This document shows positions 2,529 through 22,439 of a stretch of 64,000 nucleotides of DNA, piece by piece. Where the stretch lies: assembly GCA_963713615.1 (NCBI GenBank), contig CAVQMM010000001.1:2496001-2560000 (forward strand), given 5' to 3'. The position numbers and the translations under genes were made by a program. Position 1 is the stretch's first letter. The number at the start of each line of letters is the position of its first letter. The notes below the pieces were generated by a model. That model did no database searches. It worked only from the letters and a program-made list of their open reading frames with translations, and was not told the origin of the DNA. The stretch comes from an uncultured Chlamydiae bacterium. GTDB lineage: Bacteria > Chlamydiota > Chlamydiia > Chlamydiales > JAJFMA01.

Positions 2529-3782
2529 TCAACAGGGGTCGTGAATAGGTACCAATTTTCCTGATTTTCGGAAACCAAAGAAGAAATGTTGAGTAGCTAC
2601 TAAGCATAAGAACGAGCATAGCAGCATTACCCCTGTAGCGCCTACTATGGTGTAAAGAATAGCACCGAGAGCCGGAGCAAAGCACCCTCTAATTCCAACC
2701 ATTAAAACATTCGTTCCGCTAAAAACGACACTCTCTTCCTTTTGAGCAAAAACGGGTCCAGACATGTGCCAACCCAACTCGCTTCCAGCTTGCATAATTC
2801 CATATAGCAAATAGGCAGCATACAGAAATCCGATGTGGTATTGAGCTATTAACAACAGAAAAGGAAAAATTGCGGTAATGGCAGTCACGAGTCCACAAAA
2901 ATGATAGATATTTATGTTTCGAAACAGCCCCACCCAAAACGGCGAGGTGATAGCAAATGCGATTCCCTTGCAGGCTGCCAAAGCAAACAACATTTTAGTA
3001 TAAGATAGATTGAGGGTATCTACAAAAAATATAGGAAGAGCAGGCTGCATGACCATAATGCCCGAAGCGGCTAACATAAACCCCATTTGAAAATGCGCAA
3101 ACCCTATGTTCTTTCGAATCAAACGCCAGCTATCTATCCAAGGCTTCACGACTCGTTCTCGGAGGGGCATAGTGTCATTTACTTCAGGAACAACGTATCC
3201 ACATATAGAGGGTGTTGGAATCCAGTAAAGCAATATTGTCGAAAATAATCCCAAAAGCGCCGTCAGCGGGAATAGCCAACACCAAGAACATTCATACTCA
3301 TCTAGTATCATTCCTAATATGAAAGGCAATAAACCAGCTCCACAATAGTCGATGGTTGAGCCGTGAGATACTAAGCGCTCACGCCCCAATGTGGGAATGT
3401 TACATTTGATCGTTTCCATCCATGCGGGAATGACTCCCCGATAAAGAGCCATATAAAGGCCAAAAATGCCTACTATAATTTCTGGGATATCTATCCATGG
3501 AACAAACAAAAACGGTAAGTAGCGCCAAATATTCGCCCAGATTAGGTTAGGAATGATACGATTTGGGCGATTATGTATAGCTTGACTCCAATAAGGAGCA
3601 AAAAGAGCCGACATTGGCTTAAGAGCTATCATGATAGCAATCGTCCAAGGGCTAACATTCATCTCCTTATAAAAAATCACGGGCAGTAAGTTGACCAAGC
3701 CCCAAAAAGGAACCCCTAGTATCCGTGTCCACAAGAATGCGAACCGTGTGCGATGTGCTATTTGATTAGCAGAATAACTCAC
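2529..3782 (-). CDS. MFS transporter
   Basis: 417 aa with about 12 hydrophobic segments in two halves. Confidence 0.8.
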   Translation of the reverse strand: MSYSANQIAHRTRFAFLWTRILGVPFWGLVNLLPVIFYKEMNVSPWTIAIMIALKPMSALFAPYWSQAIHNRPNRIIPNLIWANIWRYLPFLFVPWIDIPEIIVGIFGLYMALYRGVIPAWMETIKCNIPTLGRERLVSHGSTIDYCGAGLLPFILGMILDEYECSWCWLFPLTALLGLFSTILLYWIPTPSICGYVVPEVNDTMPLRERVVKPWIDSWRLIRKNIGFAHFQMGFMLAASGIMVMQPALPIFFVDTLNLSYTKMLFALAACKGIAFAITSPFWVGLFRNINIYHFCGLVTAITAIFPFLLLIAQYHIGFLYAAYLLYGIMQAGSELGWHMSGPVFAQKEESVVFSGTNVLMVGIRGCFAPALGAILYTIVGATGVMLLCSFLCLVATQHFFFGFRKSGKLVPIHDPC

Positions 3783-4708: not shown

Positions 4709-4798
4709 ATGCAATCATGCAAAATCAACAGTCTTGGTTCCTTCGTTCGCACGACCCTCCAGTCTTGCAGTCATCTCCATCATCACCATCATTGCTAA
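4709..4798 (+). CDS. hisL: Histidine-operon leader peptide, 29 aa (MQSCKINSLGSFVRTTLQSCSHLHHHHHC)
   Basis: GGAGG at 4698-4702, ATG 4709, CAT CTC CAT CAT CAC CAT CAT TGC TAA; lies between the promoter and the first gene of a his operon. Confidence 0.85.
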   Translation: MQSCKINSLGSFVRTTLQSCSHLHHHHHC

Positions 4799-4905
4799 TT
4801 TTTTTTGAGAAGTAAGCCGTTTGGCTTAACTTGTCACATGGCCGTCAAGTACAAATTTTGCTGACTAGTTAGGCCTATGGGACATCACTTCTCGACCCAT
4901 TTTTG
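4799..4905 (+). promoter_or_regulatory. Putative attenuator region downstream of the His leader
   Basis: T8 directly after the leader stop; hairpin TAAGCC-GTTT-GGCTTA (4813-4828); alternative pairing GAGAAGT (4807-4813) / ACTTCTC (4887-4893); weak ATGGG/CCCAT stem (4877-4900) followed by a T run. Confidence 0.45.
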
Positions 4906-4945: not shown

Positions 4946-6385
4946 ATGAAAAAGGCATTGCTTTCCACATCTAACAAGAACGGTCTTGCTGATTTAGCAG
5001 GAGGACTACTAAAACTGGGTTACGAGCTCCTAGCCACACGCGGAACCGCGCAATTTCTACAAGAACAAGGTTTCACAACAACCGAAGTTGCAGAATATAC
5101 AGACTACCCAGAATTACTTGGCGGCAAGGTAAAGACTCTACATCCCAAGATCTTTGGCGGTCTCCTCGCTACGCCAGAACAATATACAGAAATGCAATCC
5201 TATGGCATTTCCCCCATTGACGTCGTTGTCGTTAACCTTTACCCCGACGAGATCGATATCGGCGGTGTGGCGTTGCTACGTGCAGCAGCCAAAAATTACC
5301 GCTATGTCCTCTCCTTGTGCGAGGAAGCCGATTACCAACCGGCTTTAAACTTCTTAGCAACTCAACAGCCGGATGTGCCATTCCGAAAAAGGCTTGCCGC
5401 CAAAGCCTTTGCCTACACTGCACGTTATGATGCTAAGCTAGCTCAAAGCTTAAGTGATGAGGAATTCCCCCAGACTTTTGTGCAGGCATTCTCTAAGGCT
5501 GGTGATCTTCGCTACGGCGAAAACCCTGACCAACGCGCTGCCTTCTATATACGCGAAGGGGGTTCCCGCCCCCTTTTGCTTAAGGGTGAGGAACTCTCCT
5601 ACAATAACCTGCTCGATAGCGACGCTGCCATACGCCTCGTCAGTGGCTTCAACGAACCTACTTGCGCAGTCATCAAGCACACAAATCCCTGTGGAACGTC
5701 GTCAGCGCCTTCTTTACGCACTGCTTTCCAACAGGCCTACGATGCTGATTCCTTGTCAGCCTACGGTGGGATCATAGCCTTTAACAAACCTGTTGATGCA
5801 CAAACTGCTGCAGAACTTAAGGATAAATTCGTCGAGGTTCTGATTGCCCCAGACTACGAAGAGGGGGTCTTGGCTATGCTTCAAAACAAAAAGAAGCTGA
5901 GAATCCTCAAAGCATCTTTAGACGCCAACCCCTACACTTTCAGCGCTGTCACCAATGGTATGCTTTACCAAAGTGCATCCACCGCGGACTTCGCCACACT
6001 ATCCGTGACCTGTCCAACAGACGTTAAACCAACATCGGAACAACTTGCGGATCTGATCTTTGCCGCCAAGGTAAACCGATGCGTAAAGAGTAATGGTATT
6101 GTCTTAGCTAAAAACCAAACGACTGTTGGCATTGGAGCAGGACAGATGAGCCGTCTCGATGCCACTACACTAGCTATCCTAAAGGCTCAGGATAGGGCTC
6201 AAGGGGCGGTACTTTCCAGCGATGGCTTCTTTCCCTTCAGTGATTCCATCGAACAGGCTGCTAAAGCCGGTGTGGTGGCAATCATTCAACCGGGAGGCTC
6301 CATCCGCGATGACGATGTCATTAAGGCCTGCAACACCTATGAAATCGCCATGGTCATGACGGGCATAAGAACCTTTAAGCATTGA
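4946..6385 (+). CDS. purH: Bifunctional AICAR transformylase/IMP cyclohydrolase
   Basis: GGKVKTLHP, IDIGG, LRYGENP, KHTNPCG, GAGQMSR, SDGFFPF and QPGGSIRD motifs; AAGGA before ATG 4946. Confidence 0.95.
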   Translation: MKKALLSTSNKNGLADLAGGLLKLGYELLATRGTAQFLQEQGFTTTEVAEYTDYPELLGGKVKTLHPKIFGGLLATPEQYTEMQSYGISPIDVVVVNLYPDEIDIGGVALLRAAAKNYRYVLSLCEEADYQPALNFLATQQPDVPFRKRLAAKAFAYTARYDAKLAQSLSDEEFPQTFVQAFSKAGDLRYGENPDQRAAFYIREGGSRPLLLKGEELSYNNLLDSDAAIRLVSGFNEPTCAVIKHTNPCGTSSAPSLRTAFQQAYDADSLSAYGGIIAFNKPVDAQTAAELKDKFVEVLIAPDYEEGVLAMLQNKKKLRILKASLDANPYTFSAVTNGMLYQSASTADFATLSVTCPTDVKPTSEQLADLIFAAKVNRCVKSNGIVLAKNQTTVGIGAGQMSRLDATTLAILKAQDRAQGAVLSSDGFFPFSDSIEQAAKAGVVAIIQPGGSIRDDDVIKACNTYEIAMVMTGIRTFKH

Positions 6386-6395
6386 GGAGAACTAC

Positions 6396-6695
6396 ATGGA
6401 TATTGATTTTGAAAAAGGTGGAGGCCTGGTTCCGGCTATCATCCAGGACTGCCACACCAAAACGGTTTTGATGCTCGGCTACATGAACGCCGAAGCCCTA
6501 GCCAAAACGCAGCAAGAAGATCGAGTGTGGTTCTTTAGCCGCTCGAAAAATCGGTTGTGGTTGAAAGGAGAGACCTCAGGGAACTTCCTAATATTAAAGC
6601 GCATTTGCGTAGATTGCGACAGAGATACCTTGCTTATCGAAGCAGAGCCTGTCGGAAATGTTTGTCACTTAGATAAGGAGTCGTGTTTCTCATGA
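6396..6695 (+). CDS. hisI: Phosphoribosyl-AMP cyclohydrolase
   Basis: FFSRSKNRLWLKGETSGN, DCDRD and CH..SCF motifs. Confidence 0.95.
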   Translation: MDIDFEKGGGLVPAIIQDCHTKTVLMLGYMNAEALAKTQQEDRVWFFSRSKNRLWLKGETSGNFLILKRICVDCDRDTLLIEAEPVGNVCHLDKESCFS

Positions 6696-7537
6696 TAAAA
6701 ATAGGATTACCAAATAAGGGAAGACTCAGTGAGCAGACGCTCGAGCTTCTCAATAAGGCAGGCTTCAAGGTCCTAGCTAAGGAGCGCAAGCTCTCCGCCC
6801 GATGTCAAAACTTCGACCTGGAAGTCATCTTCGTGCGCGCCAACAATATTCCCTCTTTTATTGCCGAAGGAATAATCGATCTCGGTATCACGGGCTTAGA
6901 TCTCGTTAAGGAACAGAACGTCGATATCGAAATGCTTCTTCCCCTAGACTTCGGCACTGCAGAACTCGTGCTAGCTGCGCCTAGAGGTTTCTCCATTGAA
7001 GACTTGTATAAGCGCAAGATTAGGATTGCCACTTCATTCCCAAATCTAACACGAGCCTTTTGCCAAGCGCAAGGGATCGAAGCTGACATCATAGAAATGT
7101 CTGGAGCCGTTGAGCTCGCCCCTAAACTTGATGTTGCCGATGCGATCGTTGACCTCACCACGTCGGGAGAAACGCTGCGCATGAATGATCTGGTACAGTT
7201 AATTAGTCTACTAGAGAGCCGAGCATGCCTGTTTGCCAGTAAGTCAAGAACCTGCAACGGTGCTGTAGACAAAATTGTTACGGCGTTTCAGTCTGTTCTG
7301 CTAGCCCACGAGAAGAAATTTCTCATCGCCAATGCCCCTAAGGCCTGCTTGCCAGAGCTGGTAAACATCGCCCCCGGATTGAGTGGGCCGACCTTCACCT
7401 CTATTCTAGGTAGAGACGATCTGTGTGCTATTCAGGTGGTCATTGATGAACGCCAAACGGCTGAGATCATCGACAAACTCAAAAAGCTAGGCGCTACCGG
7501 TATTCTCGTCACTAACGTCGAACAGGTGGTGCCTTGA
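6692..7537 (+). CDS. hisG: ATP phosphoribosyltransferase, long form
   Basis: PNKGRL, DLGITG, GAVELAP and DLTTSGETL motifs plus C-terminal regulatory domain; ATGA overlap with hisI. Confidence 0.95.
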   Translation: MIKIGLPNKGRLSEQTLELLNKAGFKVLAKERKLSARCQNFDLEVIFVRANNIPSFIAEGIIDLGITGLDLVKEQNVDIEMLLPLDFGTAELVLAAPRGFSIEDLYKRKIRIATSFPNLTRAFCQAQGIEADIIEMSGAVELAPKLDVADAIVDLTTSGETLRMNDLVQLISLLESRACLFASKSRTCNGAVDKIVTAFQSVLLAHEKKFLIANAPKACLPELVNIAPGLSGPTFTSILGRDDLCAIQVVIDERQTAEIIDKLKKLGATGILVTNVEQVVP

Positions 7538-7809
7538 TGTTTGAAGATTTAGAACAACTCATTAGTCAAAGACAAGCAGAAGGCGACTCTAAATCTTACA
7601 CCCAACGCCTGCTTACGGAGGGCAACCTGGTAGAACGCAAGGTTAACGAAGAGGCCTATGAGGTCATCGAAGCCGCGTTAACAGGCAATCGAGAGCAGAT
7701 TATCTATGAGACAGGGGATCTCCTGTATCACCTGTTTGTTTTGTTGAGAAAAAATAATATTACACTCGCTGAAATAGACCAGGAACTAAAAGGACGAAGA
7801 AAATCATGA
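7537..7809 (+). CDS. hisE: Phosphoribosyl-ATP pyrophosphatase
   Basis: SYT, KVNEEAYE and ETGDLLYH motifs; TGATG overlap with hisG. Confidence 0.93.
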   Translation: MFEDLEQLISQRQAEGDSKSYTQRLLTEGNLVERKVNEEAYEVIEAALTGNREQIIYETGDLLYHLFVLLRKNNITLAEIDQELKGRRKS

Positions 7810-9047
7810 AGATTGTCAAAGCAAACGAAGTGTCGCGAAGGTCAATAGATCTTCTAGAAGCTACCAAAGTAGTGATTCCTATTATCCAAGAAGTTAGGGA
7901 CCAAGGCGATGCTGCTCTACGTAAGTATGCGCAGCAATTTGATCGCCAGCAATTGGAACAGATCGTTGTCTCCAAAGCCCGCATAGAAGAGGCCAAACGC
8001 AACATTGATAGCAAACTCCTACAGGCCCTTAACACTGCCAAAACAAATATTGCGGCCTATCACAAAGCTCAACTGCCAAAAGACTGGATGATGTCAATTG
8101 CTCCTGGGATCACTGCTGGACAGCTGATACGCCCTATTTCGAAGGTGGGGTGCTATGTCCCTGGAGGACGCTATCCTCTTGTTTCTACTATTCTCATGAC
8201 AACTATAGTGGCACGAATAGCCGGTGTGGAACAGGTCATCGTGTGTACCCCGCGAGCAGTACCAGAGATCTTGGTCGCGTGCGATCTCGCCGGTGTCGAC
8301 CTCATTTGCGAAGTGGGCGGAGCCCAAGCTATCGCTGCTATGGCATACGGCACGGAAAGTGTTCCAAAGGTTGATAAGATCGTCGGTCCGGGAAATCGCT
8401 ATGTCACTGCCGCAAAAAAAGCCGTGTATGGCGATGTAGGCATTGATTTTCTGGCCGGACCCAGCGAAGTATTAGTCATCGCTGACGACAGCAGCAACCC
8501 AACCTATATAGCCGCAGACCTCATCGCCCAAGCCGAACACGACGACGATGCTATGGCGATTCTCGTGACTCCCTCACGCGCGCTAGCAGAGAAAGTCCTG
8601 GAGGCCCTCGAAGTACAGCTTGCTTCACTCCCAACAGCACAGACAGCTAGACGTTCCTTAGAACAAAATGGCATGATTGTACTAACAGATACACTAGATG
8701 AGGCTTTTGATGTCAGTAATCGTCTGGCTCCTGAACACTTAGAAATTCTTCTGGAGAACGTCGATGTATTGGATAAGATCAAAAGCGCCGCATCAGTATT
8801 TCTCGGAATGTATTCCGCTGAGGCCCTCGGTGACTACGCCACAGGTCCAAACCACGTGCTGCCAACGGGCGGAGTAGCTGCCTGGCAGTCGGGCCTAAAC
8901 ATTTATGATTTTATTAAGCAAATTACCGTGCAACAAGTGACTCCTGAAGGAATCCTTTCAGTGGGTGGTACAGTCTCAACATTGGCGCGCCTCGAAGGTC
9001 TCGAAGGTCACGCCCGCGCAGTACAAGTGAGGATGCAATCATGTTGA
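7806..9047 (+). CDS. hisD: Histidinol dehydrogenase
   Basis: YVPGG, GGAQAIAA, GPGNRYV, AGPSE, QAEH, APEHL and GPNHVLPT motifs. Confidence 0.96.
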   Translation: MKIVKANEVSRRSIDLLEATKVVIPIIQEVRDQGDAALRKYAQQFDRQQLEQIVVSKARIEEAKRNIDSKLLQALNTAKTNIAAYHKAQLPKDWMMSIAPGITAGQLIRPISKVGCYVPGGRYPLVSTILMTTIVARIAGVEQVIVCTPRAVPEILVACDLAGVDLICEVGGAQAIAAMAYGTESVPKVDKIVGPGNRYVTAAKKAVYGDVGIDFLAGPSEVLVIADDSSNPTYIAADLIAQAEHDDDAMAILVTPSRALAEKVLEALEVQLASLPTAQTARRSLEQNGMIVLTDTLDEAFDVSNRLAPEHLEILLENVDVLDKIKSAASVFLGMYSAEALGDYATGPNHVLPTGGVAAWQSGLNIYDFIKQITVQQVTPEGILSVGGTVSTLARLEGLEGHARAVQVRMQSC

Positions 9048-11266
9048 AGCCAAAAAATGCTGTGGTCAATCTGCCTATATATGCAGCGCCACCAGAAGGA
9101 CGCATGGGCTCTCTTCGGCTAGACTTTAACGAAAACACGCAAGGCGCCAGCCCCAAGGTCCTTGCGGCCTTAAGAGCCGTAACGGCTGCCGAATGCGGTT
9201 GCTATCCGGAGTATGACGAACTCAAAAAAGCTCTAGCGCGCTATCTAGGACTAGATACTGCCATGGTTCTACCCACCAATGGTAGTGATGAAGCCATCAA
9301 AATCGTCTTCGAGACTTTCGTTAGCAAGAACGACAAGGTCATTTTACTTACTCCAACTTTTTCAATGTATGAAGTCTATGCAACCCTAGCGGAAGCTAAT
9401 CAGGTGGTTATCCCATTTGCAGAATGTGACGATTTCGCCTACCCGGTCGAGGCCATCCTCAATGCCATTGACGGTGAAACGAAACTGGTTGTCCTGGCCA
9501 CTCCGAACAACCCTACAGGCTCAACGATCGCACGCGAAGACCTTATTCGCATCATCGAAAAAAATCCCAATACGGCGATTCTCATCGATGAGGCCTATGC
9601 AGCCTTTGCCAACTCAAGCTCCACTGACCTAGCCGCTAAATATAGCAATGTGCTTGTGACACAAACGTTTTCCAAAGACTTTGGTTTAGCAGGTTTGCGC
9701 ATCGCCTATTTGGTCTCACAAGCCGCCAATGTTCATTGGCTGAAACGTGTCATCAATCCCTATAGCGTCAATAGGTTCGCCGTTGTCGCCGCCATGGCAG
9801 CTCTTGAAGACCAGGCCTTTCTTAAACAGCATGTAGAAGAGGCCATCATGGCCCGAAACTTCTTTGCTTCTAAGATGGCAGAGCTGGGCTACAAAACATA
9901 TCCCTCGCAAGCAAACTTTCTGCTGGTCAATTTTGGCAAAGATGCAGAGGCTATCCTCGATCGTCTACGTAAGAGCAATATCCTCGTTCGCAATAAAAGC
10001 GGTCTCGTCAGGATCTCTTTTGGGAGTATCCAAGAGGCGCAACAGGTTCTGGAAGCCATCTCCGCACCGAAGACGGCCCTAATCTTCGATATGGATGGCG
10101 TCTTGGTCGATGATAGCCTGTCTTACTTAGAGTGTATCAAGAAAACAGTGGAACAACTGCTAGGCCAAAGCATAGACAACGCCGTAGTCAAAGCCGCCAA
10201 AGCTGGCGGAGGCTGTAACGACGACTATGACTGCGTCGCCAAAATATTGGCCGAAAACGGTAAGGTAGTCCCTCCAGAAACCATTGCTGAACTCTTTGAC
10301 GCCTACTACGAAACCTTCAAGTTTCAAGAAACATGGCTGATCGATGAAGCGATTCTAGCTAACCTACGCACAAAATATAGCTTAGGTATATGCACAGGAC
10401 GTCCTAAACGCGATGCGGTGGATGCCCTGCAACGGTTCAGCAAAACGCATGTCTTCGACATCGTGATTACCCGAGATGACGTTGACAAAGGAAAACCTGA
10501 TCCCGAGGGTTTAAATAAAATCCGCTCAACTCTAAACGCCACCAAAGCAATCTTCATTGGGGACAACCCCGATGACGCTTTGGCAGCCGAGAGGGCGGGC
10601 TATGCCTTCATCAAAGCAACTCCCTCAACACCTACTGCATGGCTGCTGGGAGAGATCAATCGTCTCATGAACCCCACTAAACGTGAAGCTTATATAGAAA
10701 GGCGGACCAAAGAAACAGACATCATCGCCAATCTAAACATCGACGGAATGGGCCAAGCATGCATCCAGACAGGTATTGGCTTCTTTGATCACATGCTCGA
10801 CGCCTTTACAAAACACGGTGGCTTTGACCTCAAAATTACCTGTCAGGGCGACCTACACATCGATCAGCACCACACCGTCGAGGATGTCGGTATCGTCCTG
10901 GGTGAAGCTTTTGCCAAAGCCCTGGGAGATAAGCGAGGCATTGCCCGCAGTGGATATTTTGTGTTTCCGATGGATGAAAGCCTAGCTATCTGTGCCCTCG
11001 ATCTATCCAATCGTCCGCACCTCACCTGCAATATAGAGGTTGGCGCACTGCGTATTGGAGACTTTGACACGTTGAATCTGTCCAATTTTTTCTCGGGGTT
11101 CGTGAAAGGTGCGCAAGTGAACTTGCACGTTCAGGTGCCCTATGGCATGGATCCACACCACAAGGTGGAGGCTCTCTTTAAGGCCTTTGGCAAAGCCCTA
11201 AGCATGGCCTGCACCCTAGATGCAACACGCACTGGCGTAATTCCTAGTACAAAAGGACTATTATGA
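9041..11266 (+). CDS. hisC/hisB: Trifunctional fusion: histidinol-phosphate aminotransferase (HisC) + HAD-IA phosphatase + imidazoleglycerol-phosphate dehydratase (HisB)
   Basis: PNNPTG, DEAY, TFSKDFGLAGLR (HisC); FDMDGVLVD, TGR, KPDP, GDNPDD (HAD); FFDHML, DQHHTVED, PMDE, HHKVE (IGPD); single open frame. Confidence 0.92.
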   Translation: MLKPKNAVVNLPIYAAPPEGRMGSLRLDFNENTQGASPKVLAALRAVTAAECGCYPEYDELKKALARYLGLDTAMVLPTNGSDEAIKIVFETFVSKNDKVILLTPTFSMYEVYATLAEANQVVIPFAECDDFAYPVEAILNAIDGETKLVVLATPNNPTGSTIAREDLIRIIEKNPNTAILIDEAYAAFANSSSTDLAAKYSNVLVTQTFSKDFGLAGLRIAYLVSQAANVHWLKRVINPYSVNRFAVVAAMAALEDQAFLKQHVEEAIMARNFFASKMAELGYKTYPSQANFLLVNFGKDAEAILDRLRKSNILVRNKSGLVRISFGSIQEAQQVLEAISAPKTALIFDMDGVLVDDSLSYLECIKKTVEQLLGQSIDNAVVKAAKAGGGCNDDYDCVAKILAENGKVVPPETIAELFDAYYETFKFQETWLIDEAILANLRTKYSLGICTGRPKRDAVDALQRFSKTHVFDIVITRDDVDKGKPDPEGLNKIRSTLNATKAIFIGDNPDDALAAERAGYAFIKATPSTPTAWLLGEINRLMNPTKREAYIERRTKETDIIANLNIDGMGQACIQTGIGFFDHMLDAFTKHGGFDLKITCQGDLHIDQHHTVEDVGIVLGEAFAKALGDKRGIARSGYFVFPMDESLAICALDLSNRPHLTCNIEVGALRIGDFDTLNLSNFFSGFVKGAQVNLHVQVPYGMDPHHKVEALFKAFGKALSMACTLDATRTGVIPSTKGLL

Positions 11267-11838
11267 AAACTGTAATCATAGACTGCGGCGGAGGAAATCT
11301 CCGCTCTGTAAAAAATGCCCTATACTACCTAGGAATCGCCAGCGAGATCACTGGTGACAGGAACAAGATTGAAAATGCCGACCGCGTGATCTTTCCCGGC
11401 CAGGGCAACTTTGGTACGGTCATGCAGCAGCTGGATCAGGCTAACCTGAAAGAGACCTTGCGCTTTTGCGCCCTAAATAGGCCATTTTTGGGAATATGCG
11501 TAGGCATGCAGCTGCTTCTAGAAGCGAGTGAAGAAGCTCCAGGTATTCCTGGTCTAGGCATTTTCTCCGGCAAGGTAAAGAAGTTCCCTAGTACATTCAA
11601 AACCCCACAAATGGGATGGAATAAAGTAGAGTTTGCCCAATCATCAGCCTACTTCTACTTTGCTAATTCCTACTATTGCAACGTCGAAGACTCCTCAGTG
11701 GTATGCGCGACAACGCACTATGGAGTAAATTTTCCCAGTGCATTAAGGCGAGGACAGCTACTTGCCGCGCAGTTTCACCCTGAAAAATCTGGAGAAGCTG
11801 GTTTGCGGTTTCTGGAAAGCTTTGTGAGGAACACATGA
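11263..11838 (+). CDS. hisH: Imidazole glycerol phosphate synthase, glutaminase subunit
   Basis: GNLRSV, LGICVGMQ and QFHPEKS motifs. Confidence 0.95.
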   Translation: MKTVIIDCGGGNLRSVKNALYYLGIASEITGDRNKIENADRVIFPGQGNFGTVMQQLDQANLKETLRFCALNRPFLGICVGMQLLLEASEEAPGIPGLGIFSGKVKKFPSTFKTPQMGWNKVEFAQSSAYFYFANSYYCNVEDSSVVCATTHYGVNFPSALRRGQLLAAQFHPEKSGEAGLRFLESFVRNT

Positions 11839-12587
11839 TAACAAAACGCATCATCCCCTGCCTAGACGTGGATAAGGGCAGGGTCGTCAAAGGCAAGCAA
11901 TTCATAGAAATCCAGGATGCCGGCGATCCCGTCCAGCTGGCTAAGCTATATGCCAATCAAGGCGCCGATGAAGTCGTCATCTTGGACATCACAGCATCCC
12001 TGGAAGCGCGTGGCACATTCCTACATACTGTTGAGGCAGTATGCAAAAAACTGTTCGTCCCCCTCACAGTTGGTGGTGGTGTGCGAACCGTAGCTGATAT
12101 GCGCAAGCTACTCATGGCTGGAGCAGACAAGATCGCTATTAACAGCGCCGCGATTGCAGACCCAAAAATCATCAGTGAAGCGGCTGACATGTTCGGCTCA
12201 CAATGCATCGTTATTGCTATGGATGTGAAAAGAACCTCCTCGGGCTGGACAGTCTACTCCCATGGTGGCACACGCCCCACAGACCTTGACGCACTAGAAT
12301 GGGCTCTGCGCACTCAGGAACTCGGTGCGGGTGAAATTCTCCTCACCTCAATCGACCGCGATGGCACCAGAAGTGGTTATGACATTGAGCTCTTGCAGTG
12401 TGCAGTGAGTAGACTAAAAATCCCCGTCATCGCCTCTGGAGGCGTGGGGAAATGGGAAGACATCCGCGATGCCTTTCTACTTGGCAATGCTGACGCGGCC
12501 CTCATGGCCTCTATTGTACACTTTGGAGAGATGACTATCCCTCAAATAAAAACACTATTAAAAGACTCTGGAGTATCGGTAAGGTGA
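11835..12587 (+). CDS. hisF: Imidazole glycerol phosphate synthase, cyclase subunit
   Basis: KRIIPCLDV, GEILLTSIDRDG and IASGG motifs. Confidence 0.96.
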   Translation: MITKRIIPCLDVDKGRVVKGKQFIEIQDAGDPVQLAKLYANQGADEVVILDITASLEARGTFLHTVEAVCKKLFVPLTVGGGVRTVADMRKLLMAGADKIAINSAAIADPKIISEAADMFGSQCIVIAMDVKRTSSGWTVYSHGGTRPTDLDALEWALRTQELGAGEILLTSIDRDGTRSGYDIELLQCAVSRLKIPVIASGGVGKWEDIRDAFLLGNADAALMASIVHFGEMTIPQIKTLLKDSGVSVR

Positions 12588-12591
12588 TATC

Positions 12592-13302
12592 ATGATCTAT
12601 CCTAGTATTGACCTCATGAATGGAAAGGCTGTGCAGCTTGTCCAGGGAAAAAAGGAAAATAAGAAGCTTGAAATCGATGATGTCTTCGGCCTCGCAGATA
12701 AATTTTCGCAGCTTGGCCACATCAACGTGATCGATCTCGATGCAGCTTTTGGCAATGGTGACAACAGACAATTAATCCAAAGGTTAGCAGCCAAATACCC
12801 CATACGTGTTGGGGGAGGCATTCGCTCGGTTGACATTGCTAAAGCATATATCGAGGCGGGTACTGAGAAGATTATCATCGGCAGTGCTGCTTTTCAGAAG
12901 AATCGTGTCAATAGCGAATTTTTGAGTGCATTACGTGATCGTATTAAGCGTGAGCAGATTATTATTGCTCTAGACTCCTATCAGAAGGCCGTGGTCACAA
13001 AGGGCTGGACGGAGACGACAACACTGGATGCCGCGGAGATTATCAAGAGTCTCGAAGAGTATTGTGGAGAGTACCTGTACACACAAGTAGACAAAGAAGG
13101 AATGATGCAAGGCACGAACGTGGAACGCATCGTCGCATTGAAGGCTCTAACGAGTAATCAGCTTACCGCAGCTGGTGGCATTTCCACAGTAGAAGAGATC
13201 CAGGAACTATGGTCTCATGGCATCTACAGCGTACTTGGTATGGCCCTGTATACCGAGAAGCTCCCTTTTGAAACGTTGATGAAAATAAAGCATTCCAAGT
13301 AA
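12592..13302 (+). CDS. hisA: ProFAR isomerase
   Basis: IYPSIDL..GKAVQL.QG, IDLDAA and VGGGIR motifs. Confidence 0.92.
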   Translation: MIYPSIDLMNGKAVQLVQGKKENKKLEIDDVFGLADKFSQLGHINVIDLDAAFGNGDNRQLIQRLAAKYPIRVGGGIRSVDIAKAYIEAGTEKIIIGSAAFQKNRVNSEFLSALRDRIKREQIIIALDSYQKAVVTKGWTETTTLDAAEIIKSLEEYCGEYLYTQVDKEGMMQGTNVERIVALKALTSNQLTAAGGISTVEEIQELWSHGIYSVLGMALYTEKLPFETLMKIKHSK

Positions 13303-13832: not shown

Positions 13833-16800
13833 TTAATGTGTCTCTCTTAACTGGTTAACAACCGACACAAAAGTGCTAGGGATTGTTTCCGCTAAGGTGA
13901 GAATTGTCACACCGATTAGAAGGCGCATACGATCCGGAGGGCTTAAATTTTTCTCGCGACACGCATTGGCAACAACGTCTCGGCACCGAAATAACGCCTG
14001 CGTTAAGGCCAACAGATCAACAGGTGTAAAGCCTGCAAGAAGCTGCACAAACCAGGCCGCTGGTTGTTGCACGTTTAACCTCGTCCATTGCACTAGTAGC
14101 GTATCGGACACTTTTTGCCGACACTCATCATCTAACCATCTAATGATGTGTTTTTTGCAATCGTCAGTCACCTGAGCTAAGTCATCCATGGAAAGAGCTG
14201 ACTCACTGAGTGTCAAATAGGATTCCAGTATCGGTAGTATATGCCTAGAATCAGCCAAGGAGGCAAAGTGAGCCAATATTCCCACCACACGGAAGAATAG
14301 ACCTGCAAAACTTTCAGCGGATATCTTATCGCCTAAATATGTTTCCTTAAACTGCGCATTGACGGTATCACCTATCGACATCACGTTCGTCTGAAACTCA
14401 TCATTAAGAAGTCCGCACGCAAGCATGCTGCTGTCGAGATGTATGGTTCCCTCTTCCGGGATTTCAAACGCTTGAGCCAGCTGCTGTCTTAAGGCCATCA
14501 AGGGTCCATGTTCTGCTAAAAGCCTAGGGACAGGAGGGGCTCGAAATAGAAACCAATGGTTTTGCACAACCGCCTCTAATCCCAGGAGTAGCATCTGCCG
14601 AGCCTGGGATTGTACCTTCCTCTGAACCTCTTTATCTTGCTCATTCCAGGGGGTGAGTATTTCAGCCCACTCTTTTGTCTTTCGTTTGTCAGCTTCGATA
14701 TGGGAAGACTGCATGCGAAACACGTGAGCCGACAGACGGCGTTGCATTTCCAAGCTTATCTGCGGACAGGCTAGCATACTAATCCCATCTAATGGAGGGA
14801 GATCTCCGCGATTGAGAAGACGATTAACACCTTCATCCGTTACTTGACTATCGATAAGCTCGATCACACGTAGCTTCGGGAGTGTAGCCAAGAGTCCCAC
14901 CTCAGCGTCATTCACTCCGCCTGCGTCCTTCAAGTGAACCTCCTGCAGCTCTTTACAGTAGTAGACGAGTCTTTCCATACCAACATGAGTCAGCCCCTGA
15001 CACCTTCTAAGGTCTAGACTGGTAAGTCTTTGACAACCCTTTGCAAGCTTTGAAAGATCCTGGTCCGGACCAAAACGACATTCTGCACGGAGACGCACCA
15101 GGCCAGGACAGTGCTTAGCAAGTGCGACAACGTCATCTGTAAATAGACTGGTGAAATTGTCCGTCATACCTGTACTCCATAGAGCCGTCATGCTTGGGCA
15201 TGCTTCAGCAATAGGTTTTATCTTGAATCTGCCCGCTAAAGTTAGGCGCACCTGTAAGCCTACAGGACAGTTAGACAGGAAGAGAAGTTCACGAGCCGTC
15301 GGTTTAAAAGCCCGCCAAGCATATCCTGTCCTCTCTAAGCGCACATCTACAGCCTCAAAGTCAGGCCATGAAGGACGGAGCTCACTGACATCAAGGCTTG
15401 CAAAAGGAGCTTCTGTATGATGCTCCGAGAGCTTTAGGGTAACCGCCAACCGTTGCAATTTGTGCAATTTGGCGAGATACTTCCATCCTTGTCCATCCAC
15501 CAGAGGGCACTCTCCGTCTAATGTCAACTCAGTGAGTTGTGGATAACTGGTTACCAGACGGCAAATTTCCTCATTAGTGAGGGCACGACAGGCCGTCGTA
15601 TCTAGGCGCAGAGCTGGCAATTGAACAGGCAGGGCATGCGGAAGCAATCCCAAGGAGGGATTATCCGCCGGGACCACCATCTGTGCTAACTCATGCGGAT
15701 CCACTACGAATGGTTGTGGAGGAGGGACAAGGTTCTTGAGTACGACGGGCCTAATTTTCTGCGCAGCTCGTCTACAACAGGCAGCACCAACACCAGCCCC
15801 TAGGACTGTAGCAGACAATAGGGTTATCCCGACCGCTGAGGTGTCCACTACTCTGGACATTGTTGGTATAACCGAAATCACTGCATTAAGAGCTTCTCCC
15901 GTGTAACCACCAGCGGTTTCAATAGCAGCTATGGTTTGCTGATATAGCAACCCATTAGATCCAGTCATAAAATACACGACTCTCTCCAAAGCCGTCGAGG
16001 CAGTGGCTCGCGTCACACTGAAAACACTGTTAATATCGATTGATCCGATCGCACCAGCCAGCCTCTCATAGGCAACTGACCCATAGGGCACGTAAGAGAA
16101 TGCCGTTGAGGCAGCTAATACTGCGACGTCTTTCATCATGGATAAGCCACTTCTAGTTGTATCACGATAGAGATACGCCGACGTAGCTCCAATCGCACCA
16201 AACAAGGTTAGCCCCGTCCCACGGGCAATTCTAATGGCTCGATCCTTACTTATCTGATCAAACAACGCCTTACGCCAGGTGCGAGGGGGTAGAGGAGGCT
16301 GCTCAGCCCAGTATTTGAGTGTAGCTTCTTTCCATTGACCTCTTAGCTCATGCAAAATACCTTGCAACTCTGGGTGTGCAGCAACCTTAGCATGGTCCAA
16401 TTCAATGATCTTTAGGCGTCCGTCTGAAAGTATATTGATCCTGATGATTCCAGCGTATTGCTTAGACAATGTTTTCACGGAGGCTCGAAGCAGGTGGGGC
16501 ATATCCCGTTCTCTTGCGATCTGAAGAAGAATGAGCATATTGTCAGCTTGATCTGCCTGACCGATCAAATAGTTCTCAAAACGCTTTTGAAAGTGTCTAC
16601 AACCAAAATAGTCAACCGATGCCAAAAGATGTCCCACCTGCTCGACTGTCAAACCCTCCAAGCTCACCGATTCGGTTCGCATCCACTCTTGCGCGGCTTG
16701 CAGTTTTTCAACTGAAATATCTCTTAGCACAATGGCCTCATCAGGAATTTTACCCTTATCTGCCTCTACGAATCTCCCCTCTAGCATGCGGTGTAGCATA

Positions 16801-18449
16801 GTGGATCTCGCCATGCAGATAAAACGACTACAGGCGATTATAGGGTAAATGCGCATCGTTTTAAGATTAATTTCGCCACCTTCATCATCGATTGTGGCCA
16901 CGGCAAACTGATTACACCAAGTAACTAAGGCCTTTTGCCAAGGAGCTGCCTCTTCTGAAAGCGCCTCGCAGCTGGTTTTTAGGCCTTGAAAACATGCTAA
17001 CAACCTCTTGTCTTCTAAAGTCTTCGCTTTGATTAATAAGCTTTGCAACAGCAAAATTTGCTGTTCAAGACTAAGAGTTGCAACATGTTGCTCAAAAGTC
17101 TCGTCGTCTGAGTCTTCATCTATCTCTGGAAGATCGGCCAACTCGAGTTCGTTGGATAGTCTTCCCACAGTCTCGTCAAAGCTCTTACAAAAATCACCTG
17201 GAGTCACCTCTGAATCTGGTAGAGCAAAATAGACCTTTTCCTCTTCAAGAATCTGCAGTAATGTTTGGTCCCTGCCCGCAATGCGAAGGACCCATTCGGC
17301 ATCTTCCTCGCCTAGATCCCCGTTAAGATAGCTTCGTTGCAATGCTCTCAGGATAGGAGGAAGGAGCGTTCGGTACTCTTGGTTCGGGCTGGACACAATA
17401 TAGAGGAAAAAACTGAAGAGATTCAGGGACCGTTTTGTCAAATCTTTTTGAAAGTCCTGCTCAAGCATCCAGTGCCAGTTGTCATCTAAGTCAGCGCGTT
17501 GGCCGACTAAATAAGCCGCTAGCTGTTCACAGTTGTCAAGTTCAGCACGCTTCTGATCATCGGTTTTTTGGCCCCAACGCCTAGCCAACAGCTCAGGATC
17601 TAAGGTTTGAGGACTCTCAGTACTCCTTTCTTCCAGCAGTACCTTGTCGAAAAACGTTCTCTGGGACGCATCAAAAACACAAGGAAATGGCATCGGTGGC
17701 ATCTTTTGAATAGCCATTCCCCCTAAGATCTGTTGCGTCTTTTCAAGACCAGGTAAGCTAAAGAGCCGAAGTAATAAGTCTTTGCGATTTCGCAGTTCAG
17801 TAGAGAGTGGTATTTTTTGTATCTTTGCCTTAGCGCCTCTTAATAAATTCCAACCCTTTGCAACACTAAGAGCAGCTTCCGGGAGCTGCAACATCTCGCA
17901 GAAGGCTGCATCACATGCTTTCAAAATGCTCGGCATCTCTTGCTGCTTGGACAGCTCAGCAAGCTGTAACAGCGCCTCTACCTCAGCTAATGTAATGGGA
18001 GCTGGTAGGGCTTCGCCGTGCAAGAATGCGCTAATGCGCTCCATCTGTGCGTAAGAAATATCGGAAAGAGAAATAGGTTCTTCAGAGGGCTCTTCAGCAT
18101 ATTTGCTGGCTGCGACAAGCGCAGAAAATTTAGGCGATAGACAGGCCAGCATAAAGCTGTTAACCTGAAGCTCCTTCCCTTCTACGATTATTGTGAGATC
18201 TTTTTCGCACTGACCAAGATTCCGATGGCAAACTCGCGTTGCTTGTAGGATAGCCTCCATATCAACCGGAGACAGCTCACGCCCTTGTAACAGAGTCTGT
18301 ACTTCCTGTTTGATCTCACTAAGTTCCTGAAAAAGGCCTGCAACAACTGACTGTTGTGAAAGCTCTTCTATGCGCGTTACAATCGGATTTTGTTGATATA
18401 TATCATTAACACCAAAATCAATAATATTTATATTATTAAAATTATCCAT
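13833..18449 (-). CDS. Large effector-like protein: two BTB/POZ-like domains, hydrophobic segments and leucine-rich repeats
   Basis: DLTIIVEGKELQVNSFMLACLSPKF and ACSRFICMARSTMLHRML...IVLRDIS (BTB-like); CQRLTSLDLRRCQGLT-type Cys-containing LRRs; Asn/Ile-rich N-terminus. Confidence 0.75.
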   Translation of the reverse strand: MDNFNNINIIDFGVNDIYQQNPIVTRIEELSQQSVVAGLFQELSEIKQEVQTLLQGRELSPVDMEAILQATRVCHRNLGQCEKDLTIIVEGKELQVNSFMLACLSPKFSALVAASKYAEEPSEEPISLSDISYAQMERISAFLHGEALPAPITLAEVEALLQLAELSKQQEMPSILKACDAAFCEMLQLPEAALSVAKGWNLLRGAKAKIQKIPLSTELRNRKDLLLRLFSLPGLEKTQQILGGMAIQKMPPMPFPCVFDASQRTFFDKVLLEERSTESPQTLDPELLARRWGQKTDDQKRAELDNCEQLAAYLVGQRADLDDNWHWMLEQDFQKDLTKRSLNLFSFFLYIVSSPNQEYRTLLPPILRALQRSYLNGDLGEEDAEWVLRIAGRDQTLLQILEEEKVYFALPDSEVTPGDFCKSFDETVGRLSNELELADLPEIDEDSDDETFEQHVATLSLEQQILLLQSLLIKAKTLEDKRLLACFQGLKTSCEALSEEAAPWQKALVTWCNQFAVATIDDEGGEINLKTMRIYPIIACSRFICMARSTMLHRMLEGRFVEADKGKIPDEAIVLRDISVEKLQAAQEWMRTESVSLEGLTVEQVGHLLASVDYFGCRHFQKRFENYLIGQADQADNMLILLQIARERDMPHLLRASVKTLSKQYAGIIRINILSDGRLKIIELDHAKVAAHPELQGILHELRGQWKEATLKYWAEQPPLPPRTWRKALFDQISKDRAIRIARGTGLTLFGAIGATSAYLYRDTTRSGLSMMKDVAVLAASTAFSYVPYGSVAYERLAGAIGSIDINSVFSVTRATASTALERVVYFMTGSNGLLYQQTIAAIETAGGYTGEALNAVISVIPTMSRVVDTSAVGITLLSATVLGAGVGAACCRRAAQKIRPVVLKNLVPPPQPFVVDPHELAQMVVPADNPSLGLLPHALPVQLPALRLDTTACRALTNEEICRLVTSYPQLTELTLDGECPLVDGQGWKYLAKLHKLQRLAVTLKLSEHHTEAPFASLDVSELRPSWPDFEAVDVRLERTGYAWRAFKPTARELLFLSNCPVGLQVRLTLAGRFKIKPIAEACPSMTALWSTGMTDNFTSLFTDDVVALAKHCPGLVRLRAECRFGPDQDLSKLAKGCQRLTSLDLRRCQGLTHVGMERLVYYCKELQEVHLKDAGGVNDAEVGLLATLPKLRVIELIDSQVTDEGVNRLLNRGDLPPLDGISMLACPQISLEMQRRLSAHVFRMQSSHIEADKRKTKEWAEILTPWNEQDKEVQRKVQSQARQMLLLGLEAVVQNHWFLFRAPPVPRLLAEHGPLMALRQQLAQAFEIPEEGTIHLDSSMLACGLLNDEFQTNVMSIGDTVNAQFKETYLGDKISAESFAGLFFRVVGILAHFASLADSRHILPILESYLTLSESALSMDDLAQVTDDCKKHIIRWLDDECRQKVSDTLLVQWTRLNVQQPAAWFVQLLAGFTPVDLLALTQALFRCRDVVANACREKNLSPPDRMRLLIGVTILTLAETIPSTFVSVVNQLRETH

Positions 18450-19540: not shown

Positions 19541-21436
19541 ATGGCTGAACCCTATTCTGATCATCATGACGAGGTCTCTCAAGACCTACATACTGCTATC
19601 AGCAACCTCGAGCAATTTGCGTTGCTCAACGCATTTGAGCCTATTCCGCACTTCTATCACCTTGAGCTTAAAGATGGCCACATTATACCCAATGCCGTGG
19701 ACCCCTACCAAAAGCTCGTTGGCCTAGCGCGTTGTTTTGTCACTGCGCTGCTATCAGACACTGTTCGGCGCGATCATGAGCAACGCCGCGACCGCCTACA
19801 GCAAGAGATCTTGAGGGCTATCGATATTGTAAAAAACAGTTACCCGCTGCTTGATAAGCTCAAAAATGGCGATGCTGCAGAGCGTAAACTCGCCGATGCT
19901 GCGATGGCCACCATCGATCATTTCAATTCTGTTATCGAAGGAGCCCGTGATCGCCCTCCCTCTTGGGGACAACGTTTCGCACGCTTTCTCTTTCGACGCA
20001 GCGGTCTTTCCGTAGATGAACATTTAGCTCGTCAAACCATCGAACTTCCTTTGCCAGCTAGTCAACACTGTGAGTCGCCTCAGGACGTGGGTCAGGCTTG
20101 CTACAAGGTTAGTACCATGGTCCCTGGAATAGCCAGTAACGTATCCTCAAAGGTATCTTCCCTAGCTGCCCCTCAGCAAGGTCCCTTATATGTATCCCTA
20201 ATACCCTCTCATCGTGAAGTAGATGCATTTCGTGTTAAGGCAATTACTATGATTCGAAATTACGGATTCCCTTCGACCTCGCTCAGTGAAGCCTTGAAGG
20301 CTGTACGGCAGACGCCTGTGCAGAGCGCTGACACCAAAATAACTAAAGGCCTGCAAGGCGAGGCCACTATTGTGACGTTTAAGCAAACGATAGAACCCTT
20401 TCCAGGTGAAGTACTCCTATTGGAAGGTTCATTCCGACGCGATGCACACAGCAAGGTTCCCAGCATCCCAATACCCGATAGCTTCCGACTGTTTTCGCGT
20501 TCCTCACAAAGCGGCTTTCCGCACCCGATCCAACATGCGGGCTGGGGTCTCTGTGACAAACTGTTACCTCCCTGTCCCGACTACCCTGAAAAGCTCCCCT
20601 TATACCGCATGTTATGCGATCAGAAGAGGAAAATGGCGCAGGCCCTCCTGCCCAGTGGGGTATTGTTGTTTCAGGCAAAACGCTTGTTGGAAACGCAGAA
20701 GGAACTTTTTGAAGCCTATCACGACGAATTTTTAACGCTTCATCGACGTTTAGCATCAGCTATTGCCAGGGCAACGAACGCTAACACTAACAATGGTATC
20801 ATCAAAAATCTGTTCCATTTCCTAAAAGGCCAGTCAGCAGCATTGGAGCAGTTAGCACAAGCTTATTCCTGCATCTGCGATACAGCGATTGTAAAACCAT
20901 TAGAGTATCTCCAAAATAGTTGGTTGAGTGCTCGCGCATCAGGCTCGTGGACGGCCTTGACGTCCGAAAGGCGTCTGGAACTATCGCGCAGCATGTTTCT
21001 CGAAGGCGCCCAGGAGGCCCTAGAGAGGTTAAAAGCGGAAAAGCTGTTGCAGGTTCCTGAACCATTGGCGACATATATGGTCTTTTTGGGACAACTTCTG
21101 CAGAAACCAGCTTGTGAATTAGTCTTGCAGTATATGTCTGAGAAAATTGGTTTCGAGCCTCCCAAATTAAGTCCCTTTGCTCAAAGACTGCAAACCGCTA
21201 CCTTCAGACAACTCATGGCCTTTATGGTTAACCTTGAGGTCGACTTAGGCGATGATCCAGAAGAACAGCGCCTATTAGTTAAGAATCGCCTGGTCATGAC
21301 ATTGGAAGCTGATATCACTTGCTTTGAGGAACCCCTCGCCATGAATGCGAATAAAAGCGTGACCTCGCTACGCAAGGAGCTAGCCGACTATTACCATCAG
21401 CGAGCCCTAAACCCAAACAGGCGCGCCTTCGCGTAG
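19541..21436 (+). CDS. Hypothetical protein (631 aa)
   Basis: Long ORF with codon style like the neighbouring housekeeping genes; no motif recognised. Confidence 0.75.
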   Translation: MAEPYSDHHDEVSQDLHTAISNLEQFALLNAFEPIPHFYHLELKDGHIIPNAVDPYQKLVGLARCFVTALLSDTVRRDHEQRRDRLQQEILRAIDIVKNSYPLLDKLKNGDAAERKLADAAMATIDHFNSVIEGARDRPPSWGQRFARFLFRRSGLSVDEHLARQTIELPLPASQHCESPQDVGQACYKVSTMVPGIASNVSSKVSSLAAPQQGPLYVSLIPSHREVDAFRVKAITMIRNYGFPSTSLSEALKAVRQTPVQSADTKITKGLQGEATIVTFKQTIEPFPGEVLLLEGSFRRDAHSKVPSIPIPDSFRLFSRSSQSGFPHPIQHAGWGLCDKLLPPCPDYPEKLPLYRMLCDQKRKMAQALLPSGVLLFQAKRLLETQKELFEAYHDEFLTLHRRLASAIARATNANTNNGIIKNLFHFLKGQSAALEQLAQAYSCICDTAIVKPLEYLQNSWLSARASGSWTALTSERRLELSRSMFLEGAQEALERLKAEKLLQVPEPLATYMVFLGQLLQKPACELVLQYMSEKIGFEPPKLSPFAQRLQTATFRQLMAFMVNLEVDLGDDPEEQRLLVKNRLVMTLEADITCFEEPLAMNANKSVTSLRKELADYYHQRALNPNRRAFA

Positions 21437-21587: not shown

Positions 21588-22197
21588 AGATTCTGCTTCA
21601 TGTTCTTCAATCGCGGCAACATTCCCGCTTGGATGGAACTTTTAAGACTTAATGTGCCGGATCCTAAGCGAAGTCGTATTTTCTCCATTGGATCGACCTT
21701 CTGCCATCTTGGCGGTGGAGGCTTTCCATTCCTAATCGGATGGTTACTAGATGATTTCACAGAAGGCTGGAGATGGATCTTCCCCGCAACAGCGCTAATG
21801 GGAATCACCGGCATCTTTTGGTACAGAGACATCAATCCAACCCTAGAAGACTACGAGAATATCCCTACCACTCCTCCCTGGACCCTGGACCAGCTAACTT
21901 CCCCCTGGAAACAAGCCTGGCAAATCATCATCCAAAGGCCAGACTTTGCCCGTTTTCAACTCGGTTTTCTCTTGGGGGGTGCAGGGCTGATGGTGATGCA
22001 ACCAGCGCTGCCAGCCTTCTTTGTGGATAGTCTTGGACTATCCCACACAGATCTAGCAGTAGCTCTGACATTATGTAAGGGCATCGGGTTTGCCCTGACA
22101 TCGCCTGTATGGGCCTCTTGGATGCATCAGGTCAACATCTATCGCTTTAGTGCCTGGGTAACCATATTGGCAGCCCTCTTTCCTGTCGGGCTCGCAG
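21588..22197 (+). pseudogene. Internal fragment of an MFS transporter paralogous to 2529-3782
   Basis: RGNIPAWME and FQLGF.LGGAG.MVMQPALP.FFVD.L.LS match the middle of the 417-aa MFS; both termini missing and replaced by repeats. Confidence 0.8.
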
Positions 22198-22245
22198 TGG
22201 ACAATATGGACAGTAATGGACATCATGGACAAAAATGGACAGATG
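22198..22245 (+). repeat. Short tandem TGGACA repeats with 9-10 bp period
   Basis: TGGACA at 22198, 22207, 22217, 22226 and 22236. Confidence 0.75.
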
Positions 22246-22439
22246 GCCAAAGCGGGCAATCATAGGAAAAAACAATAAATACATTTATAAGGACTTGGAA
22301 ATAAAAATATTTTTTTCTTTCCCCTCTCTGTCCGATCTCGGCGTCTCTGTGTTCTCTGTGTTAAAATTTCTCTAGCCGAATCCTTCTCGCCTTGCAACGA
22401 TCCTTAAGGACTCGTATGAAACCCTATATATCCACAATG

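Follow-up and report, generated by a model that had tools for sequence, protein, structure and literature searches.

Genes of histidine biosynthesis fuse often, and several steps of the pathway are carried by one chain in fungal HIS4 (hisIED) and HIS7 (hisHF) and in the heptafunctional protein of Acanthamoeba, none of which includes HisC, a phosphatase or imidazoleglycerol-phosphate (IGP) dehydratase (IGPD) in the available parts of PMC1963479 and PMC6029752. The 2007 survey in PMC1963479 lists five his fusions, none of them with hisC, a term absent from the part of its text that was available. The bifunctional HisB of E. coli (HisNB; NF003937; PMC1963479, in part) carries a HAD phosphatase N-terminal to IGPD, and two archaeal histidinol-phosphatases, nmHisN (Nmar_1556) of Nitrosopumilus maritimus and toHisN of Thermococcus onnurineus (PMC10804674, in part), share a HAD core in which motif I is followed by a single helical cap, and are encoded between hisC and hisB. 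Here we describe a window of 64,000 nucleotides, the whole stretch analysed, from an uncultured Chlamydiae bacterium (contig CAVQMM010000001.1, positions 2,496,001 to 2,560,000), in which a single gene joins HisC, a capped HAD phosphatase that resembles nmHisN and toHisN, and IGPD. The parts are known enzyme types; their arrangement is apparently undescribed, since no account of a HisC-HAD-IGPD protein was found in the literature searched, although subscription papers and most supplements, which were outside its scope, may mention one.

The gene encodes 741 residues (81.0 kDa), and its translation showed a sole, terminal stop. Pfam domains Aminotran_1_2 (residues 26-340, E 3e-57), HAD_2 (347-524, E 3e-22) and IGPD (577-720, E 1e-61) were identified in this order. 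The gene and its parts are the following:

9041..11266, + strand: hisC-hisN-hisB triple fusion gene; its start overlaps the hisD stop and its stop overlaps the hisH start
9041..10063, + strand: HisC histidinol-phosphate aminotransferase domain, residues 1-341 (TIGR01141 above cut-off, PDB HisC matches, conserved residues)
10064..10669, + strand: C1-capped HAD phosphatase domain, residues 342-543, TIGR01548-like and very likely of the nmHisN/toHisN type (motifs I-IV, profiles, model)
10124..10225, + strand: cap residues compared with the archaeal histidinol-phosphatase fingerprint, Y362, L363 (deviant), I366, V383, K387 and D395 (residue spacing, alignment via 6IAH)
10648..10669, + strand: purine-rich stretch 12 nt ahead of the in-frame ATG of Met543, the position at which split relatives start hisB
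10670..11263, + strand: IGP dehydratase (HisB) domain, residues 544-741 (Pfam and NCBIfam, metal motifs)

A preliminary description of this DNA, made from its letters, had proposed one 741-residue frame of HisC, capped HAD and IGPD. Frame, domains and catalytic motifs were all found intact, and its boundaries (HisC to about 10063, HAD about 10064-10669, IGPD about 10670-11263) were right. From the observed frame, domains, motifs, gene context and recurrence of the arrangement we infer the activities, the assembly and the benefit discussed below: this one polypeptide very probably carries out histidine biosynthesis from step 6 through step 8, with a phosphatase of the nmHisN/toHisN type and as a predicted particle of 24 subunits.

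The HisC part reached 279.6 bits against the NCBIfam hisC model TIGR01141, above the cut-off of 276.55 by a thin margin. The pyridoxal phosphate (PLP) lysine K212 and the active-site residues D183, Y186, R220, R324 and Y55 are nearly invariant across alignment A4. The C-terminal part scored above the cut-offs of two HisB models (NF002111 and NF002114) and contains H584, two metal motifs DxHHxxE (608-614 and 704-710; motif as defined in the available part of PMC6029752), R636, R658 and the C-terminal S736/K738. When the open reading frames (ORFs) of the genome were searched with each domain, the sole HisC-level match and the sole IGPD match were those in the window. The full-length AlphaFold model contained three well-folded domains (mean pLDDT 91.5, pTM 0.61), and its lowest inner pLDDT blocks, 73-76, were located at the HAD-IGPD junction; the model is consistent with relative domain positions that are not fixed.

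One question posed by this junction is whether the gene gives two products, the full-length chain and a stand-alone IGPD started at Met543, which would dilute the bulky arms in mixed 24-mers. The in-frame ATG stands exactly at the hisB start of split relatives behind the purine-rich stretch, in the region of lowest inner pLDDT, and may be either a relic of the hisB start or an internal start. However, the spacing of 12 nt is long, and the methionine is absent from the three closest triple fusions (P0002-P0004), which leaves a second product unlikely.

Regarding the HAD domain, all four catalytic motifs are present (D350/D352, T452, K485 and D508/D512). In the AlphaFold model of this part (pLDDT 90) four helices inserted between motifs I and II form a C1 cap, and the Foldseek matches of the model were capped HAD phosphatases. 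This cap type differs from that of E. coli HisB-N, which, as the preliminary description had stated, is GmhB-like (HAD-IIIA) and not joined to HisC, and which has other caps: the domain gave 30 bits on TIGR01656 (cut-off 84), and the fusion 240 bits on NF003937 (cut-off 443). The best NCBIfam model over the whole domain length was TIGR01548 (HAD-SF-IA-hyp1), the function of which is still labelled hypothetical in NCBIfam 20; its Phytophthora member P28624 is, we assume, a HAD-IGPD fusion. An Atlas search returned solely HAD clusters, one of them named TIGR01548, and two stand-alone relatives (P0133 and P0137, 41-42% identity) exceeded the TIGR01548 cut-off.

According to the available part of PMC10804674, an assay of the Nitrosopumilus capped HAD, whose gene lies between hisC and hisB, showed it to be a specific histidinol-phosphatase with the fingerprint Y24, D25, K56 and E64, toHisN has Y-D-R-D, and the euryarchaeal and deltaproteobacterial clusters have arginine at position 25. 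The nmHisN spacing Y24/I28 and I52/K56/E64 (same source) is mirrored here. Tyr24, Lys/Arg56 and Glu/Asp64 correspond to Y362, K387 and D395, and the accessory Ile28 and Ile52 to I366 and V383, so that three of the four fingerprint positions and both hydrophobic ones agree. At the matching columns of 232 aligned HAD-family sequences Tyr was present in 223, Arg in 207, Lys/Arg in 232 and Asp/Glu in 231, and 222 had Tyr, Lys/Arg and Asp/Glu together. The best PDB match of the family profile was 6IAH (E 6e-26, the next one 4e-17), the protein Tt82 of Thermococcus thioreducens, which places Y-D-R-D, the toHisN fingerprint, on Y362-L363-K387-D395. Hence, the crystal structure of a histidinol-phosphatase of this type may already have been solved under a different name, although 6IAH is a stand-alone archaeal protein of 240 residues deposited without a histidine-pathway name. 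In a metagenome search with a HAD-only alignment (A1), each of the 80 loci found adjoined a his gene, nearly all as hisC-HAD-hisB; as read from the table, seven were HisC-HAD fusions and none was a triple fusion.

It is its family, and not the fusion, that makes the HAD domain very likely a histidinol-phosphatase of the archaeal nmHisN/toHisN type. The identity proposed in the preliminary description therefore stands, whereas the claim that the fusion itself reveals it does not, archaeal capped HADs between hisC and hisB having already been assayed (PMC10804674, in part). The HAD is the sole candidate phosphatase of the operon, as had been suggested; genome-wide it is not, since a GmhB (found also in two of three congeners that lack IGPD) and a SuhB-like inositol monophosphatase (166 bits, HisN cut-off 275) are encoded outside the operon. 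No histidinol-phosphatase of the PHP type (HisJ) was found above cut-off in the genome.

Several points weigh against the assignment. The domain reached 76.3 bits on TIGR01548, below the cut-off of 140.2. The position of Asp25, occupied by Arg in cluster II and in deltaproteobacteria, is Leu363 here. The link to nmHisN and toHisN was made via residue spacing and 6IAH and not by direct alignment, the orthology of 6IAH with toHisN is itself a deduction, and the 6IAH phosphatase is said to have broad specificity. In the available part of PMC10804674, the D25A exchange lowered the kcat/KM of nmHisN from 10,822 to 49 (about 220-fold), and even the version with Arg at position 25 is rated just a "likely" histidinol-phosphatase. 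Owing to Leu363, we class the domain as homologous to nmHisN and probably working like it, not as a full-fingerprint member. Further differences are the smaller cap, with four helices in the model as opposed to nine and seven in nmHisN and toHisN, and the position of the HAD as middle domain of a bacterial triple fusion, whereas nmHisN is a stand-alone monomer (PMC10804674, in part).

These points would also fit a genuine fusion whose HAD copy is weak or not specific for histidinol phosphate and serves mostly as a spacer, step 8 being carried out by the SuhB-like protein or GmhB. Apart from Leu363 and the further phosphatases of the genome, the C-terminal end of the HAD is shortened with regard to stand-alone members. 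Nevertheless, the four motifs and three cap residues are retained, and Leu, Met or Ile occupies position 363 in 14 other of the 232 family members, including that of locus L008, which lies within a his operon. No rate acceleration was visible either: the HAD branch is not long in the tree, and identity to the triple relatives is similar for HAD (57-59%) and HisC (56-63%). We consider a weakened phosphatase improbable.

Two observations on other members of the HAD family were made. A chlamydial stand-alone member with degenerate motif I and cap residues (P0124; L093:7657-8331, - strand, genome G185) is encoded away from his operons, in a genome that lacks IGPD, and is possibly an orphan or repurposed copy. 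In the his loci L095, L096 and L097 two HAD-family genes are located close together.

Histidinol-phosphatase is the gap most often left in automated pathway annotation (missing in 42 of 208 prototroph genomes in the available part of PMC13759103, GapMind 2026), and the assignment of this HAD may bear on it. The triple fusion allows a test in bacteria of a HAD family that has been proven so far in archaea only and is labelled hypothetical (TIGR01548), including its variants without Asp25.

In the reaction sequence we propose, the IGPD domain (Mn) would dehydrate IGP to imidazole-acetol phosphate, the HisC domain (PLP) would transaminate this compound to histidinol phosphate, and the HAD domain (Mg, with Asp350 as nucleophile) would strip the phosphate to give histidinol for the neighbouring HisD. 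One soluble gene would be expected to complement hisC, hisN and hisB defects.

HisC works as a dimer, in which the partner subunit completes the active site. All known IGPDs are 24-mers, their active sites exist only in the 24-mer of 432 symmetry, and their N-terminal sheet faces outward (PMC6029752 and PMC10978614, both in part). The predicted active form is therefore an IGPD core from which 24 HAD arms point outward and in which HisC forms 12 dimers. Such a particle would comprise 24 chains of 81 kDa (1.94 MDa, computed), and 12 is also the number of two-fold edges on an octahedral particle. By analogy with other IGPDs the 24-mer is a sound inference, and arms on the IGPD oligomer have a precedent in HisNB, where a HAD is fused N-terminally to IGPD. 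An obligate dimer tethered to an obligate 24-mer poses a structural problem of symmetry. A bolder and tentative possibility is a symmetry-matched cage, in which 24 HAD-HisC arms of an octahedral IGPD core pair through 12 HisC dimers on the two-fold edges to give a closed three-step machine of 1.9 MDa (or, with pairing between particles, a self-assembling lattice). Such a machine might have had repeated origins, in bacteria, in archaea and probably in protists, and might have entered the obligately intracellular chlamydiae within an operon that is regulated by histidine and brings along its own gene for AICAR recycling.

The preliminary description had also raised a large channelling assembly. 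The large assembly follows from the 432 symmetry of IGPD; for channelling we found no support, and close relatives run the pathway with a separate hisB. Selection of the triple fusion for substrate channelling among three active sites in a giant particle would agree with three consecutive steps on one chain, with the recurrence of the triple in distant lineages and with the very short linkers of this clade. However, the domain order is the gene order and not the reaction order, so that IGPD and HisC, between which the first intermediate passes, are separated by the phosphatase. Other combinations are numerous and include non-consecutive or skipped sets (HisG-HisC-HAD, and HisC-IGPD without HAD in 39 of the best 150 representatives described below), linkers range from a few to more than 100 residues among triples, and the sister chlamydiae keep hisB apart. 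In addition, the available part of the review PMC10138114 describes his metabolons as unconfirmed and notes that channelling may not raise the steady-state rate. A channelling origin is improbable, and intermediates most likely diffuse freely. The triple fusion would rather have arisen as a small-step join of genes already abutting or overlapping in the order hisC-HAD-hisB, and its likely benefit would be that a transferred operon supplies the three activities at a constant 1:1:1 dosage and is expressed compactly. The fused and split sister versions form a natural pair for the channelling question.

The triple fusion was confirmed as genuine, rare and recurrent. Independent proteins of 727-766 residues contain the same three domains with 44-63% identity to the query. 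Among the matches listed, the architecture was present in 15 of 120 homologues, the query included (the list covers proteins of 407-1297 residues only), and after addition of three cluster members in 18 of 123, the rest being 94 HisC-HAD and 11 HisC-IGPD proteins. The best 150 of the representatives at 50% identity comprised 7 triple, 91 HisC-HAD, 39 HisC-IGPD, 3 HAD-IGPD, 9 HisC-only and 1 IGPD-only proteins; one of the three HAD-IGPD representatives is probably a triple whose HisC part matched weakly. Contigs from public runs were identical to the window over 9949-10099, 10059-10209, 10545-10695 and 10668-10818. The first of them bridges the HisC-HAD junction with zero differences, and contig 10545-10695 satisfies a 31-base bridging rule up to position 10664, three bases before the old hisB start codon. 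Four of the eight public runs yielded little, or merely cross-matches to IGPD motifs, and run X7 none. Both checks named in the preliminary description, on reads over the junctions and on distribution, came out in favour of the fusion: the run contigs match both junction regions without difference, and the architecture is rare yet recurrent, with no earlier description found. The homologues are the stronger evidence, because the source sample may be among the public runs. An assembly or base-calling error that erased stop codons between separate genes is effectively refuted, since, although hisB is in another frame in the closest genome-anchored relatives, the architecture recurs in 14 other listed proteins from several sources and the contigs agree across both junction regions.

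Successive stages of the fusion were found among the relatives: three separate genes (L008), a HisC-HAD fusion with an overlapping hisB, and the triple. L008 had appeared as a full-length match in the whole-protein genome scan, which was swamped by stand-alone IGPD, and was rejected because it consists of three separate genes. The same operon occurs in three other chlamydiae, which belong to two further families: purH again comes first, hisC and HAD are fused, and hisB lies in another frame and shares 16-19 nt with the end of the fused gene. Among members of its own family the fusion query gave no match (0 of 6). IGPD was present in 4 of 300 genomes of the phylum and, above cut-off, in 3 of 400 of the order, the source genome included, and all 14 controls were positive. 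This patchy presence suggests horizontal acquisition of the operon. Composition gave no sign of recent transfer: GC is 0.49 and GC3 (third codon positions) 0.52 in the fusion, and the ORF means are 0.475 and 0.468 (standard deviations 0.03 and 0.05). An empty insertion site could not be demonstrated, the major facilitator superfamily (MFS) gene to the left of the operon having differing neighbours in all three congeners.

In quick LG+G4 trees of HAD, HisC+HAD and IGPD (subsets of 112, 51, 31 and 51 rows), the fusion grouped with P0002-P0004 beside the chlamydial double fusions, and the triples P0005-P0007 branched just outside. The region of P0001-P0007 is nested among HisC-HAD proteins, the named ones of which are from Woesearchaeota and Nanoarchaeota. 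The remaining triples lie far away: one is a Micrarchaeia protein, others form a GC-rich group, and others again are long, have an added HisD and look eukaryotic. A single clade of all triples was rejected by the approximately unbiased (AU) test (p-AU 2e-95), and so was a single clade of P0001-P0007, with a p-AU of 0.003 that is weaker than it appears because this group was named after the tree had been seen. These rejections imply either more than one origin of the triple or a single origin followed by many splits; on the trees, several origins are probable. Within the clade that holds the fusion, two gains and one gain followed by a re-split are equally short. In the Micrarchaeota sample, the HAD was found in 14 of 201 genomes, once inside a frame of 846 residues.

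Other fusions were seen during these searches. HisG-HisC-HAD triple fusions of about 760 residues include P0039, P0041, P0051, P0085 and others, one named Woesearchaeota; P0097, P0113 and P0265 are four-domain HisD-HisC-HAD-IGPD proteins; and HisA-HisI-HisE fusions occur at L096, L097, L100 and L114.

The operon that carries the fusion extends over positions 4946-13302, with genes that overlap or nearly abut in the order purH-hisI-hisG-hisE-hisD-[fusion]-hisH-hisF-hisA. Its remaining elements are:

4709..4798, + strand: 29-codon leader ORF, a candidate histidine sensor, with six His codons among its last eight sense codons, followed by a stop and a run of T
4946..6385, + strand: purH (5-aminoimidazole-4-carboxamide ribonucleotide (AICAR) transformylase/IMP cyclohydrolase), first gene of the operon (Pfam, relatives)
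6396..9047, + strand: hisI (6396-6695), hisG (6692-7537), hisE (7534-7809) and hisD (7806-9047)
11263..13302, + strand: hisH (11263-11838), hisF (11835-12587) and hisA (12592-13302)

Provided that the HAD is the phosphatase, every step of the histidine pathway has a gene in this operon. The source genome (3.97 Mb, 99% complete) is chlamydial: a protein encoded by another genome of its order falls in a cluster with a member named 'Chlamydiae bacterium', and the source genome contains an OmcB-like match below cut-off that was absent from the 14 controls. A complete histidine pathway was found in 4 of 300 chlamydial genomes (G000, G092, G259 and G275), which belong to three families, and the triple fusion marks one of these few chlamydiae. 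No description of a chlamydial his operon was found in the searched literature, within the scope stated above. In all four chlamydial loci the operon is headed by purH. The source genome encodes purA and a phosphoribosyl pyrophosphate synthetase (prs), with no purF above cut-off; hence the role of purH is likely to be recycling of the AICAR that HisFH releases, a function that travels with the operon.

In all four chlamydial loci (the window, L090, L091 and L092), purH is preceded by a leader ORF of 29-43 codons that ends in 4-7 His codons followed by a stop and a run of T, and this suggests that the operon is histidine-regulated. A His-rich leader ORF before the operon is shared with the enterobacterial hisL attenuator. 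Unlike the latter, the chlamydial leaders gave no Rfam match and no conserved terminator/antiterminator hairpins: no terminator-like site was found there, and no consensus hairpin follows the His codons in the four sequences. The 3' half of the leader (window 4709-4806) is pyrimidine-rich and G-poor, and rho is present in the genome; the leader may sense histidine in a Rho-dependent or another non-classical way. A frame-shift reading was discarded, since in none of the four loci does a shifted frame stay open between the His codons and purH.

Directly after the operon (window 13833-18449, - strand) lies the gene of a 1538-residue protein that combines a BTB/POZ domain with a C-terminal part resembling leucine-rich repeats and looks like a eukaryote-like chlamydial effector candidate. 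A 631-residue ORF without Pfam match follows at 19541-21436 (+ strand). The region is flanked by paralogous MFS transporter genes at 2529-3782 (- strand) and 21600-22265 (+ strand); the open frame of the latter, just 232 residues, matches residues 110-312 of the former copy, and the gene may be broken. Elsewhere, in genome G000 (C1, about 693,000), about 35 codons of a frame upstream of gmhB (L177:1399-2193, - strand) are repeated in tandem almost exactly, through either a local duplication or an assembly artefact.

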